From Eledone cirrhosa (lineage: Eukaryota): a stretch of 64,000 bases of DNA. Position numbers and translations under genes: made by a program. Below the pieces are notes generated by a model. It was not told where the DNA came from, searched no databases, and saw only the letters and a program-made list of their open reading frames with translations. Shown one piece after another: positions 3,386 through 26,998 of the stretch. The stretch lies in contig OZ024747.1 of the NCBI GenBank assembly GCA_964016885.1, positions 42,718,001-42,782,000 on the forward strand, read 5' to 3'. How positions within the stretch are numbered: the stretch's first letter is position 1; every line of letters starts with the position of its first letter.

Positions 3386-7621
<4,236 letters not shown>

Positions 7622-8165
7622 AAAAACAAATAACGAAACAAAATTAAATTTTGTTTCGTTTGTAACTCACTTTTGTATGACTGACGTTTAAATAATTAAG
7701 TTAAAAATGTACATCCACATATGTATACTGAAATACTAGTATGCATATGAATACACACACGTGTACATATGTAGATGTACCGAGTTTTTCACTGGATACT
7801 TTACTGTGAGTGTTCAGCTATTCTGTATGTAAACACACAGACAAACCGGTTTTTAGAGTCATACTGGTTTTCGAGGAAACATTCCTTTCCTCTATTCCCC
7901 AGAAAGCCAGACAGGAATATTGGACTAGTTTCGATGTTGTTACATCTCATCAGCAATATTTACCTATCCTCCGGCCTTTCTATCGAAAACCAGTATGACT
8001 CTAAAAACTGGTTTGTCTGTGTGTTTACATACAGAATAGCTGAACACTCACAGTAAAGTGTCCAGTGAAAAACTCGGTACATCTACATATGTACACGTGT
8101 GTGTATTCATATGCATACTAGTATTTCAGTATACATATGTGGATGTACATTTTTAACTTAATTAT
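7622..8165 (-). mobile_element. Fold-back element: 183-bp inverted arms around a hammerhead-containing spacer, embedded in (AT)n (probably Penelope-like/retrozyme-derived)
   Basis: Arms 7692-7874 and 7983-8165 are reverse complements with 2 mismatches (7797/8060, 7848/8009). The spacer is 108 bp. An unpaired extension at 7622-7691 contains a 13-bp hairpin (7632-7660). Confidence 0.75.
7916..7960 (-). ncRNA. Canonical type I hammerhead ribozyme
   Basis: Minus strand: AATATTG-CTGATGA-GATGT-aaca-ACATC-GAAA-CTAG-TC-CAATATT. The core is fully conserved, with 7-bp stem I, 5-bp stem II closed by G-C, palindromic stem III A-CTAG-T and a GUC triplet (cut between 7923 and 7922). Stem I extends past a TA bulge via GGATAGG/CCTGTCT and AGAAAG/CTTTCT. 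Confidence 0.92.
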
Positions 8166-8197
8166 ATACATATATATATATACATATATATATATAC

Positions 8198-8228
<31 letters not shown>

Positions 8229-8312
8229 CACATATTTAAATATATATACATATATATATATATACATATATATATAATATATATACATATATATATATAT
8301 AAATATATATAC

Positions 8313-8349
<37 letters not shown>

Positions 8350-8750
8350 CATAAATATATATACATATATATATACATATATATATAAATATGTATACAT
8401 ATATATATAAATATGTATATGTATATATATATATAAATATATATACATATATATATACATATATATATAAATATGTATACATATATATATATATAAATAT
8501 ATATACATATATATATACATATATATATAGATATGTATACATATATGTATAAATATGCTTACATATATATATATATATATAAATATATATACATGTATAT
8601 ATACATATATATATAAATATGTATACATATATATATAAATATGTATACATATATATATACATATATATATAAATATGTATACATATATATATACATATAT
8701 ATATAAATATGTATACATATATATATAAATATATATATAAATATGTATAC

Positions 8751-8811
<61 letters not shown>

Positions 8812-8958
8812 CATAAATATATACATATATATATATATATATAAATATATATACATATATATAAATATATATACATATATATATACATATATATATAAAT
8901 ATGTATACATATATATATACATATATATATATATAAATATATATATACATATATATAT

Positions 8959-8989
<31 letters not shown>

Positions 8990-9000
8990 CATATATAAAT
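8166..9000. repeat. Interrupted (AT)n microsatellite
   Basis: (TA)n with CA, AA and TGTA interruptions. Confidence 0.97.
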
Positions 9001-9632
9001 TAATAAAATATTCGCAATCTTCAGGTTCAAAATATGTGGTGACAGTCAAGTTTGCAATTTTCAACTGTAATAAGATGGGTAAATTTCCTACCTTTTATAC
9101 ATTTTATACAGAGAAAAGTGGCTCCAGAATGCTAAGCCCTGTAAACTCTATTTCGACCAATCAGTGTGTAGTTTCACTGAATTACTAAAGCTGATTGGTT
9201 TAAGCGTCACGGCTGGTTGAGCATGTCTAAAGACCAATAATCATATCCAAAGCATCAATTGTTTTGCTATTTTTAGAAATGATGAAAATAGCATTTTCTA
9301 TTAATCATCACCATCACTTTTATTAATATTATTATTGTTGTTGTTGTTGTTAGTGGTCGTAGTCAAAGTGGTAGTAGAAGTAATACCCCTAAGCGTTATT
9401 ATTGTTCATTTAGCTTGGGTTTGAATTTCTTAATAAAATTCTTTTCTTTGATTTTTCTCTTGATTTCACTTGGGCTGTGTAATTTGTAGAATGGGAATAT
9501 TATAAATATTCCCTGACCACATGTTGCTAGATGGTTGCTTAGGGGTATCTGACGGACATTTGGGTCTCTGATTTGTTGATGGTGTACCCGTGCACGTTCC
9601 GATAGTGTATTTCCAGTTTGACCGACATATAG
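9001..9632 (-). mobile_element. 5'-truncated Penelope-like element: C-terminal GIY-YIG endonuclease fragment plus 3' non-coding region ending at (AT)n
   Basis: 9632-9399 (-) translates without stops to LYVGQTGNTLSERARVHHQQIRDPNVRQIPLSNHLATCGQGIFIIFPFYKLHSPSEIKRKIKEKNFIKKFKPKLNEQ*. It has the YVGQT motif, conserved R and H, catalytic E and terminal P-x-LN of PLE GIY-YIG domains. It is absent from the ORF track, presumably for lack of a start codon. Confidence 0.85.
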
Positions 9633-10699: not shown

Positions 10700-12270
10700 A
10701 TCATCATCATCATCGTTTAACGTCCATATTCCACGCTTGCATGGGTTTGGACGGGAGTTTTCCTACTTGAGGCAAGAGTGGTTGTCTTGCTCGCATAGGA
10801 CTGTCTGGCGGGTTTTCTACAGCTGGATGCCCTTCCTAACACCAACCACATTTACAGTGTGGGACTGGGAGGTTTTTACCGTGTTGCCTACACGGCCACA
10901 TTACAGTGTAGACTGTGTTTTTTTTTTTTTTGTCGTGACACCTACACGACCTCATTTGTTTCGGCCTGGATGTTGTGGCACCAACATAACTTTACATTGA
11001 AAGGGGCGGTGTGGATGGGGTGGGGTTGGTGGGACGGGGGTGTATTTTGTTAGAGGTGCCTACTGACTGTAGTAGGTTTTACTTTGTATTTAGGTAAGGC
11101 GGGTCTTCTCTATTACTGAGTACCGCCAAAGATCTCGGTCCAGTGACATTGTCTTGGAGAGGTGTAAGTGTGTGAGGTCGGAATTTATCAAGTCGTCCCA
11201 GGTTTTTCTGGGTCTGCCTACTCCGTGGCTACCGTCTATCTTTATTGCCCTGCACTTTTTTATACAGCTGTCGTCTTTCATGCGCATCACGTGACCATAC
11301 CAACGTAGCCTTCTCTCGAGTAAACAACATCTGATCCCTCTTATTTCTAATTTTTCCCTTAGTTCGTTAATGCTTTGCCGTTCACATATATTACTATTAC
11401 ACATCCAGCGGAGCATGCAAGCTTTGTTCCTCTCTAATCTGCGTATATCCTCTGCACACAATGCCCAGGTCTCACTGCCATGCAACATTGCTGTTCGCAT
11501 ACAGGCATCATACAACCTGCCTTTCATTTTTAGGGAGAACCCTTTAGCGTCTAATAGTGGTATAAGCTCTCTGAACTTTTTCCATCCAGTTCTGACTCTA
11601 GCTACTGTACTTTCAGAGCACCCTCCCCCACTGCTGATTTTGTCACCCAGGTAACGGAAGCTGTCCACTATTTCTATAGAACCCTCTGCGCTATTGAAAG
11701 AGCTAATATTTTGTGGGCACTTGCTGCTACTTATTGCACCAGAGCACCGGCCACATGTAAAATCTATGTTCTTAGTTAGCTTACCTGTGATACCACTACA
11801 TCTTTTATGCACCCATACTTTGCATTTGGGACATAAAATGGAGTTTCTACCTACGCCTTTCCTACACACTGAGCATGGCCATTTCCCGGAAGGGACCGTC
11901 GCCTTATAGAACTTTAGTCTTAGCCAGGTTAATTTTAAGGCCTTTTGATTCTAGGTCGTGCTTCCATATTTGGAATTTCTTCTCTAGCTCGGCCATTGAT
12001 TCAGCTATGAGCGTTAGATCATCTGCGTATAGGAGTTCCCATGGGCAGCCGGTCTTGAACTCCACTGTTATAGCCTGAAGGGCAATAATAAATAGTAGGG
12101 GGCTAAGAACAGAGCCCTGATGAACACCAACTTTTACGCTAAACTCTTCACTATATTCGTTGTTAATTCTAACCTTGCCGACTGTTTCTTTATACATGGC
12201 TTGTATAGCTCTCACAAGCCATTCATCAACACCTAGTTTTCTAAGAGCCCACCAGATAATGGAACGGGGG
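10700..12270 (-). mobile_element. 5'-truncated RTE-clade LINE, copy A (frameshifted)
   Basis: ORFs 11904-12215 (GVHQGSVLSPLLF, LLYADD reverse-transcriptase motifs) and 11090-11869 (FRYLG, RRLRWYGHV, GRPRKTW) are split by a net 17-bp deletion near 11905 relative to copy B. The 3' UTR ends GGACGTTAAACGATGATGATG, a (GAT)n tail. Confidence 0.95.
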
Positions 12271-12618
12271 TTTATATATATATATATTTTTTTGCATCAT
12301 CTAATTATATGCTATTTATCCAGGACAATACAAATCTCCCTCCCTATGCTTTATACTATAAAAATTATTCTTCCTTGTCTCTCTATCCTTAATCAAATCT
12401 CTGTTGCTTTCGTGCATAAGATATTTCTATGCTTCTAGTAGCTATCTTTTTCCTCATCTGTTTCTCTCTCTGTCTTTCTTCTTTCTTCAATAATATAAAT
12501 TATTTGAATCTCTAACAGTTATGTAAATTGCTATTATGTATTTTTTTAAGCTTTCTCACACGCACCCTCTTTATTATATGTAATTTTTTCATGTGTCAAT
12601 CTTAAGGTATATAAATAT

Positions 12619-21612: not shown

Positions 21613-22043
21613 ATTATATATATATATATTATATATATATATTATATATATATATATTATATATATATATATTATATATATTATATATAATATATATATA
21701 TAATATATATAATATATATATAATATATATATATATAATATATATATATGTAATATATATAATATATATATATGTAATATATATAATATATATAATATAT
21801 AATATATATATATATATAATATATAATATATATATATATGTAATATATATAATATATATAATATATAATATATATATATATATATGTAATATATATAATA
21901 TATATGTAATATATATAATATATAATATATATATATATATATATATAATATATATAATATATATATATAATATATATAATATATATATATATAATATATA
22001 TATATAATATATATAATATATATATATATAATATATATATATA

Positions 22044-22084
<41 letters not shown>
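21125..22084. repeat. Interrupted (AT)n microsatellite containing short unique stubs (21251-21328, 21547-21571)
   Basis: (TA)n with AA or TT interruptions. Confidence 0.95.
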
Positions 22085-22087
<3 letters not shown>

Positions 22088-22119
22088 GAGAATAAATGGG
22101 AGAAAGACAGTCTCCCCCA

Positions 22120-23670
22120 TATCGAATGGCTTGTGAGGGCTATACAAGCCATGTATAAAGAAACAGTCAGCAAGGTTAGAATTAACAACGAATATAGTGA
22201 AGAGTTTAGCGTAAAAGTTGGCGTCCATCAGGGCTCTGTTCTCAGCCCACTACTATTTATTATTGCCCTTCAGGCTATAACAGAGGAGTTCAAGACAGGC
22301 TGCCCATGGGAACTCCTATACGCAGACGACCTGACACTCATAGCGGAATCAATGGCCGAGCTAGAGAAGAAATTCCAAACATGGAAGCACGGCCTAGAGT
22401 CAAAAGGACTTAAAATTAACCTGGCTAAGACCAAAGTACTAGTTTGTAGGAAAGAAAACAAGGCGGCGGTCCCTTCTGGGAAATGGCCGTGCTCGGTGTG
22501 TAGGAAAGGCGTAGGTAGAAACTCCATTTTATGTCCTAAATGCAAAGTATGGGTGCATAAAAGATGTAGTGGGATCACAGGTAAGCTAACTAAGAACATA
22601 GATTTTACATGTGGCCGGTGCTCTGGTGCAATAAGTAGCAGCAAGTGCCCACAAAATACTAGCTCTTTCAATTGCGCAGAGGGTTCTATAGAAATAGTGG
22701 ACAGCTTCCGTTACCTGGGCGATAAAATCAGCAGTGGGGGAGGGTGCTCTGAGAGTACTGTAGCTAGAGTCAGAACTGGTTGGAAAAAGTTCAGAGAGCT
22801 TATACCACTATTAGCTGCTAAAGGGTTCTCCCTAAAAATGAAAGGCAGGTTGTACGATGCTTGCATACGAACAGCAATGCTGCATGGCAGTGAGACCTGG
22901 GCATTGTGTGCAGAGGATATACGCAGACTAGAGAGGAACGAAGCTTGCATGCTCCGCTGGATGTGTAACAGTAATATACGTGAACGGCAAAGCATAAACG
23001 AACTAAGGAAAAAATTAGAGATAAGAGGGATCAGATGTTGTTTACTCGAGAGAAGGCTACGTTGGTATGGACACGTGATGCGCATGAAAGTCGATAGCTG
23101 TATAACAAAGTGCAGGGCAATAAAGATAGACGGTAGTCACGGAATAGGCAGACCTAGAAAAACCTGGGACGAGCTGATAAACTCCGACATCACACACTTA
23201 CACCTCTCCAAGACAATGTCACTGGACCGAGACCTTTGGCGGTACTCAGTAACAGAGAAGACCCGCCTTACCTAAATATATAGTAAAACCTACTCCAGCC
23301 AGTAGGCATCTCTAACAAAATACACCCAGTCCCACCACCACCACCCCCACCCCATACACACCACCCCGTTCTATGTAAAGTTATGTTGGTGCCGCGCCAT
23401 CGAGGCCGAAACAAATGAGATCGTGTAGGTGTCACGACAAAAAAACACACAGTCCACGCTGTAATGTGGCCGTGTAGGCAACACGGTAAAAACCTCCCAG
23501 ACCCACACTGTAAATGTGGTTGGTGTTAGGAAGGGCATCCAACTGCAGAAAACCTGCCAGACAGTCCTATGCGAGCAAGACAATCACTCTTGCCTCAAGT
23601 GGGACTACCCCCGTCCAAACCCATGCAAGCGTGGAACACGGACGTTAAACGTTGATGATGATGATGATGA
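22120..23670 (+). mobile_element. 5'-truncated RTE-clade LINE, copy B
   Basis: Homologous to copy A in the opposite orientation; ends GGACGTTAAACGTTGATGATGATG. Confidence 0.95.
22133..23275 (+). CDS. Uninterrupted C-terminal 380 aa of an RTE LINE ORF: partial reverse transcriptase, PHD finger and C-terminal domain (N-terminally truncated, not a functional gene)
   Basis: GVHQGSVLSPLLF, LLYADDL, GLKINLAKTK, C4-H-C3 motif, FRYLG, RRLRWYGHV, GRPRKTW, DRDLWR. Confidence 0.9.
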   Translation: MRAIQAMYKETVSKVRINNEYSEEFSVKVGVHQGSVLSPLLFIIALQAITEEFKTGCPWELLYADDLTLIAESMAELEKKFQTWKHGLESKGLKINLAKTKVLVCRKENKAAVPSGKWPCSVCRKGVGRNSILCPKCKVWVHKRCSGITGKLTKNIDFTCGRCSGAISSSKCPQNTSSFNCAEGSIEIVDSFRYLGDKISSGGGCSESTVARVRTGWKKFRELIPLLAAKGFSLKMKGRLYDACIRTAMLHGSETWALCAEDIRRLERNEACMLRWMCNSNIRERQSINELRKKLEIRGIRCCLLERRLRWYGHVMRMKVDSCITKCRAIKIDGSHGIGRPRKTWDELINSDITHLHLSKTMSLDRDLWRYSVTEKTRLT

Positions 23671-26798: not shown

Positions 26799-26998
26799 NN
26801 NNNNNNNNNNNNNNNNNNNNNNNNNNNNNNNNNNNNNNNNNNNNNNNNNNNNNNNNNNNNNNNNNNNNNNNNNNNNNNNNNNNNNNNNNNNNNNNNNNNN
26901 NNNNNNNNNNNNNNNNNNNNNNNNNNNNNNNNNNNNNNNNNNNNNNNNNNNNNNNNNNNNNNNNNNNNNNNNNNNNNNNNNNNNNNNNNNNNNNNNNN
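26799..26998. other. Scaffold gap (200 N)
   Basis: Run of exactly 200 N, probably a placeholder of unknown true size. Confidence 0.99.

Follow-up and report, generated by a model that had tools for sequence, protein, structure and literature searches.

A hammerhead-bearing fold-back in the Eledone cirrhosa genome is a short stub of an abundant 465-469-nt tandem family with retrozyme-like features and Penelope-type ends

A 64,000-nucleotide stretch of Eledone cirrhosa contig OZ024747.1 (hereafter the window) contains a long fold-back with a hammerhead ribozyme motif in its loop, which raises the question of whether the structure is a dedicated hairpin element or one copy of something more widespread. 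Recomputed pairing of the 183-nt arms (7692-7874 and 7983-8165) gave 181 of 183 positions paired, with differences only at 7797/8060 and 7848/8009. The near-perfect 183-bp fold-back described in an earlier note on this DNA therefore stands, and so do two other features that it reported, an extension of 70 bp (7622-7691) and flanks of (TA)n. The right end of the arm was only partly correct, as pairing does run to 8165 but the match to the family unit described below stops at 8163, the last two positions (8164-8165) being target DNA that pairs by chance. The features of the insertion are as follows, with unit positions referring to the 465-nt family unit.

3386 to 8997, no strand: (TA)n-rich target array holding the insertion, from the repeat composition of the window
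7611 to 7622, plus strand: left copy of a candidate 12-bp target-site duplication, overlapping the element end by 3 nt, with the identical 12 letters at 8163-8174
7620 to 7982, minus strand: tail-bearing (T) arm, unit 1-361, RNA 3' end leftward, 98.1% to the 465-nt unit
7620 to 7693, minus strand: tail, about 74 nt between the family's two fixed outer ends; its extension 7622-7691 folds into its own hairpin (7632-7660)
7916 to 7960, minus strand: predicted type I hammerhead with a 7-bp stem I, a 5-bp stem II and a palindromic CUAG replacing a stable stem III; predicted cut 7923|7922
7982 to 7983, no strand: inversion junction, where unit 361 abuts unit 255 with neither overlap nor insert; it varies among copies
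7983 to 8163, plus strand: short (S) arm, unit 255 to 75, inverted, RNA 3' end rightward, 98.3% to the unit
8163 to 8174, plus strand: right copy of the candidate target-site duplication, the same 12 letters as 7611-7622

The window copy is made of unit 1-361 and inverted unit 255-75, with unit 362-465 missing; it amounts to under one unit with a single hammerhead, and its T arm carries a private 2-nt insertion near 7882. The longest stop-to-stop frame within the element is 93 amino acids, and a reading frame with reverse transcriptase and GIY-YIG domains is absent from it. Contigs of unknown kind cover the unit, and among the contigs listed none bridges 7982|7983, a count that is uninformative for the junction.

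Searching the 3.0-Gb genome with the 544-nt stretch yielded matches at many places at 97-99% (1,026 candidates), most of them tandem arrays of a 465-nt unit, with an older 469-nt subfamily at about 90%. The unit is about 36% GC, non-coding and without LTR structure; arrays reach 31 units on one arm with nothing between units, and units within a long array differ by 0.2-0.8%. Genome-wide, the pattern of the hammerhead core was counted 4,196 times (0 times for the reversed control), and the first 100 listed matches represent 26 places, extrapolating to about 1,100 insertions. The fold-back in the window is a short stub of this abundant 465-469-nt tandem family and not a fixed hairpin element, and the locus itself is an ordinary one among roughly a thousand insertions. 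The genome also contains at least three other families of hammerhead repeats (B, C and E; loci L025:1-1310, L049:5000-8000, L111:7580-9900, L157:56-600 and L159:1228-1800) that carry the same octamer and TATA-like motifs; in family B the basal pair of stem II is U-U and the cut triplet is GUA. At L068:2680-2700, a short-end arm of the 465-nt family faces a stub of about 20 nt that resembles the tail end of family B, a possible cross-family chimera. Single contigs of about 495 nt, at low depth, were also seen in two other organisms.

To define the form that these insertions take, 75 were mapped after merging overlapping loci, 26 of which constitute a positional sample from the core-pattern list. 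Two opposite arms were present in 59, one detected arm in 15 and three pieces in one; at least three of the "one-armed" copies carry a second-end stub too short for BLAST. In all 59 two-armed copies the RNA 3' ends point outward. One outer end lies at unit 1-5 (tail) and the other at unit 57-88, mostly 69-80 (short), in 53 of these 59, with no tail/tail or short/short combinations and six rearranged copies. The positional sample alone gave one tail and one short end in 18 of 20, with a single duplicated insertion counted twice among them. As the family ends at unit ~1 on one side and at ~70-80 on the other, the 70-bp extension of the window copy is read as a Penelope-type tail. Both outer ends fuse to (TA)n. 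Duplications of 11-16 bp flank about ten other insertions in which the target has letters other than (TA)n, and three periodic targets gave 29-33 bp; most targets are pure (TA)n and hence uninformative, and the duplication in the window is weak evidence by itself because its background is AT/AC-rich.

The point of inversion follows no such rule. The earlier note had raised the possibility of an arm-hammerhead-arm unit with fixed boundaries and had named variable inversion points as the result that would speak against it; the inversion points are spread over the whole unit. Among 45 insertions not chosen for their likeness to the fold-back in the window they showed no departure from uniform (KS p = 0.47, with some values at 465 arising artefactually where short pieces went undetected), and the loop contains the whole hammerhead in 21 of these 45 versus 15 expected by chance, so that the arm-hammerhead-arm arrangement is one draw of a variable junction. 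Many junctions show overlaps of 1-9 nt. Two independent insertions, L002 and L003, have an identical inversion junction (unit 252/377, with a 7-nt overlap), which suggests a microhomology hot spot.

These results weigh directly on the proposal that the locus is a dedicated hairpin retroelement or dsRNA source, whose loop would be opened by self-cleavage. The predicted minus-strand RNA is a rod of -357.5 kcal/mol, and the common junction of L002 and L003 lies nearby, but variable junctions, a hammerhead-in-loop count near chance, the lack of the promoter motif in the window copy and the absence of an A-to-G skew have largely refuted this idea, and we regard it as highly improbable. The possible A-to-I editing imprint raised for the arms did not materialize either, as within-insertion differences number 27 T>C versus 31 A>G; distinct lineage-fixed alleles give 13 versus 7, too few to call a skew, and one of the two arm mismatches in the window sits in a CpG. 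That the palindrome is an assembly or long-read fold-back artefact is scarcely credible at all: the surroundings are of low complexity, but the arms mismatch at two places, the ends follow the family rule, a duplication of 12 bp is present and 58 other copies are two-armed.

The two-armed form is familiar from another group of elements. Penelope-like insertions are described as containing an inverted copy, with a tail on one side only and duplications of 8-10 bp (Arkhipova et al. 2013, PMC3846280; Craig et al. 2021, PMC8557442), and a Penelope protein was reported to nick and extend both strands, to prefer AT-rich DNA and to use two start sites inside the RNA, between which the tail lies (Frangieh et al. 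2024, PMC11167929). As in endonuclease-bearing Penelope-like insertions described in these works, the insertions here consist of a head-to-head inverted, 5'-truncated copy with a tail at one end only, lie in AT-rich or microsatellite targets and have two start sites bounding the tail, the 8-10-bp duplications being those of rotifer elements. Start-site use in vitro showed no difference between strands (PMC11167929), so that the strict one-of-each rule is not explained by that work. Relative to the published Penelope-like elements, the family differs in having no reverse transcriptase or GIY-YIG frame, in a tail of about 74 nt versus 30-40 nt, in arms that are whole-unit tandem arrays, and in that a matching autonomous terminal repeat was not found in 53 GIY-YIG loci. 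The earlier note's reading of a non-autonomous retroelement with a Penelope link is supported. Its simpler alternative, a one-off inverted Penelope 5' junction, came close as to the type of junction but was wrong about its rarity, since this is the normal form of the family (59 of 75 two-armed).

The predicted ribozyme was located part by part on the minus strand: stem I at 7960-7954 with 7922-7916, CUGAUGA at 7953-7947, stem II at 7946-7933, GAAA at 7932-7929 and the palindromic CUAG at 7928-7925, followed by GUC with C17 at 7923. Stem I extends to about 7898-7982. All parts of a type I hammerhead are therefore accounted for within the 108-nt spacer, as the earlier note had claimed, and the predicted cut site (7923|7922) agrees. 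The Rfam HH9 model matches 7971-7901 with 34.2 bits and an E-value of 7.6e-7, under its gathering score of 52, and an Rfam scan of the window gave no match at or above any gathering score. Rfam microRNA matches on the arms were rejected, with scores far under their cut-offs.

Among 852 locus-level calls at the 12 core positions there are 0 changes, versus 2.6% across the unit, the loci being related and not independent, and C17 is U in seven loci. A comparison of four families, with seven hammerheads in all, shows both sides altered in 7 of 12 stem pairs, with an alignment that places families C and E poorly; family B is colinear with the 465-nt family over the entire unit. Together, the compensatory changes across related families and the unchanged core support the predicted ribozyme. 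In the predicted minimum-energy fold of the monomer, the first three core bases are paired and stem III is unformed, the alternative core pairing being 1.5 kcal/mol lower in this model. Such hammerhead motifs have been described as cleaving in pairs (PMC4209133), and the modelled monomer, with stem III unformed and the core otherwise paired, would fit cleavage as a pair. A circular unit is predicted to fold at -147 kcal/mol (z about -9.6 versus 40 shuffles), with the extended stem I closing its ends.

A second conserved feature lies in the part of the unit that the window copy lacks. In four diverged hammerhead families, ATGCAAAT lies upstream of the core at a distance of 80-92 nt, and a TATA-like box follows the motif after 40-42 nt, a region that corresponds to unit 384-432. 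Three distinct U6 upstream regions carry the same element at -76 to -78, one of them matching the 465-nt family at 14 of 14 letters, and the best U6atac gene has a one-letter variant of it. The element was found in none of the ten U1/U2 upstream regions examined (0/10). A Pol II snRNA-type promoter was rejected on this count, RNase P carrying a U1/U2-like element. Two features argue against a plain Pol III reading: each unit contains two T5 and two T4 runs on the sense strand, through which Pol III would have to transcribe, and the motif lies 3-6 nt closer to the TATA-like box than it does in U6. Since the U6-like promoter motif is missing from it, the window copy is likely to be transcriptionally silent. 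In this genome two proximal elements can be distinguished, an octamer-like one at about -77 (U6, U6atac) and TCAGT near -55 to -65 (U1, U2, RNase P), which places RNase P on the Pol II-like side by its proximal element (gene loci L166-L168 and L188 versus L172-L183 and L193). The U6atac copies L189 and L190 have no promoter and directly abut (TA)n, as retrocopies arising from the same target choice might.

How the two arms were copied can be approached through the variants that they share. At informative polymorphic sites, arms of the same insertion agree at 65 of 73, versus 10.6% for arms of different insertions; the eight disagreements count against our preferred explanation of a shared template. 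Eleven variants, each seen in only one of 57 young loci, occur on both arms of their insertion, and a 2-nt deletion is common to all 18 units, on both arms, of L083+84. Most arms reach past the hammerhead cut site, 44 of 52 on the tail side and 43 of 52 on the short side, and of 116 inner arm ends only 2 fall within 6 nt of that site. A cut linear monomer is for this reason not the template, and this candidate, in which arms would end at the hammerhead cut, was rejected. Shared alleles, together with arms that pass through the cut site for up to 31 units, fit rolling reverse transcription of a circle primed by both target strands. A circle is the simplest template; because the variants are "private" only among the 57 sampled loci, a uniform linear multimer could also have served.

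This last option forms part of an alternative that we consider doubtful, in which the arrays arose from a linear multimeric transcript of a uniform source or by unequal crossover after insertion, with no circle and a hammerhead unused in copying. It draws on a report that ribozyme mutants left insertion unaffected and that uncut RNA was the main template (PMC11167929), and on a preprint favouring local amplification (bioRxiv 10.64898/2026.07.22.740005). It sits poorly with arrays on both arms that begin at fixed ends, with the deletion common to the 18 units of L083+84 and the within-array difference of 0.2-0.8%, and with a core that stays constant while the unit drifts.

A different alternative keeps the family and the helper and derives the inverted arm from fold-back copying, either by self-priming or by a switch onto the new strand, with no second primer. 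Head-to-head inverted repeats of rotifer Penelope elements have been interpreted as self-priming (PMC3846280). In the window copy the short arm lies wholly inside the tail arm, as it does in 21 of 52 insertions; alleles common to both arms would equally fit copying, and the 1-9 nt overlaps at many junctions point the same way. Two primers are nevertheless favoured, because either arm may be the longer one (27 versus 25 in 52 insertions) and because in two of the 52, L069 and L111, both arms include sequence that the opposite arm lacks. In L063, described below, the second arm is mostly a different RNA. We consider fold-back copying distinctly unlikely.

[quoted passage not shown] A CX4CXXC motif, given for Neptune/Nematis (PMC8557442), is present in most of 16 such frames examined. 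The autonomous elements L103 and L113 likewise have one tail end and one short end in (TA)n, their tails measuring about 38-40 nt. One insertion joins the two kinds of sequence: L063:2653-6390 is a chimera whose left side is a retrozyme tail arm; 41 nt of the unit in inverted orientation follow, and then 2.4 kb of L108-family sequence, which stops at that family's short end on the right. This chimera, a single case, is suggestive of a link between a Penelope-like helper and the retrozyme. Two other candidates for joined retrozyme-Penelope elements, L156 and L076, were rejected as mere neighbours in a shared (TA)n tract.

Alternatively, the unit could be a terminal repeat belonging to an as yet undiscovered autonomous Penelope-like element, with the window copy as its 5'-truncated stump. 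The architecture equals that of Penelope insertions point by point, and only about one third of the listed GIY-YIG loci have been read. No terminal repeat homologous to the unit was found in those 53 of 150 listed loci (10,597 candidates), a result that counts against our preferred explanation. Against the terminal-repeat reading, none of the 75 insertions leads on from the unit into a coding frame belonging to it, arrays of up to 31 units have no intervening sequence, and the unit has a hammerhead of canonical size and its own promoter-like motif. We judge this explanation very unlikely. With regard to other Penelope-like sequence nearby, window positions 9011-9632 (minus strand) hold a 5'-truncated copy, 93% to the L104 family, with the end of a GIY-YIG frame and a 3' region; the hammerhead of this copy breaks off halfway, at its border with the (TA)n array of the fold-back. 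By descriptor, the autonomous families L101, L103 and L108 have no canonical hammerhead near their 3' ends, unlike the L104 family.

Taken together, we hold with good confidence that the window locus is a short, likely silent copy of the 465-nt retrozyme whose arms were likely written in trans by a Penelope-like reverse transcriptase and endonuclease. The steps that we infer for this route are given with confidence falling from the promoter, through monomer excision and circles, to two-strand priming and finally joining. Tandem source copies would be transcribed from the internal U6-like promoter, and the hammerheads, probably paired since stem III is only a palindromic loop, would excise 465-nt monomers that are ligated into circles. 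The Penelope enzyme would then nick both target strands about 12 bp apart, and begin two cDNAs on a shared template, one at unit ~1 and one at ~75; each would roll for a random length before the two are joined 5' to 5'. In the window copy the cDNAs would have ended after 361 and 181 nt, stop points that by chance would leave one hammerhead in the loop and drop unit 362-465 with the promoter motif. A fuller version, which we put forward tentatively as possible, specifies a U6-type Pol III promoter in the circle, a Penelope dimer that primes both strands on one circle with strictly one tail start and one short start, roles set by the enzyme and not by the RNA, and the Neptune-like L063/L108/L113 family as helper. 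The one-tail-one-short rule holds in L063 too, though its arms derive from different RNAs.

The family can be placed among elements already defined. Animal non-LTR retrozymes were defined with a proposal of circle-templated tandem cDNA and Penelope-like elements as strong candidates for copying (Cervera and de la Pena 2020, PMC7229834), and vertebrate co-occurrence and terminal-repeat kinship of retrozymes and Penelope-like elements have been described (Li, Clavereau and Pollet 2026, bioRxiv 10.64898/2026.07.22.740005). In both works Penelope-like elements are put forward as the likely helper, on grounds of co-occurrence or of kinship in sequence. As described there, these retrozymes are short, non-coding tandem repeats of low GC content in which every unit bears a type I hammerhead; they occur in thousands of copies, have target duplications of more than 4 bp and share their genome with Penelope-like elements, all of which applies here. 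The 465-469-nt unit is slightly above the 150-450 bp given in PMC7229834 and inside the 51-972 bp of the 2026 preprint. By these sequence features, the family is an animal non-LTR retrozyme, a known type of parasitic element. Expression and cleavage have been demonstrated for published retrozymes, whereas for the Eledone cirrhosa family both are predictions from sequence. Newt satellite 2 and the schistosome hammerhead satellites (as cited in PMC2220036) likewise combine a hammerhead tandem repeat with an internal promoter of small-RNA type; the newt promoter is described there as Pol II snRNA-type, in contrast to the motif of the 465-nt family, which matches the U6/U6atac element of the same genome and not that of U1/U2.

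The present analysis adds a counted rule for the ends, evidence of a template shared by both arms, the U6-like motif and a single chimeric insertion. The main text of PMC7229834 does not use the word "inverted", no two-arm or tail analysis was seen in the 2026 preprint, and nothing was found in the literature on cephalopod retrozymes or two-arm retrozyme insertions, although supplements could hold cases. The origin of tandem and inverted ends in Penelope-like elements is still called undefined in PMC8557442. The family is of modest importance, in that the helper and copying route of animal retrozymes have so far only been proposed. Its ends supply rules that can be counted, namely one tail and one short end, a stagger of about 12 bp, a shared template and read-through of the cut site. 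With these end rules, a small 465-nt template and a named candidate helper, a two-primer rolling-circle model could be tested in the existing in vitro Penelope assay.

Elsewhere in the window, positions 26999-64000 are occupied by a 37-kb satellite of about 1,612 copies of a 23-nt unit (95% match), preceded by a 200-N gap at 26799-26998. In addition, reverse-transcriptase-like frames at 11090-12296 (minus strand) and 21995-23275 (plus strand) belong, as judged by eye, to one LINE-type family.
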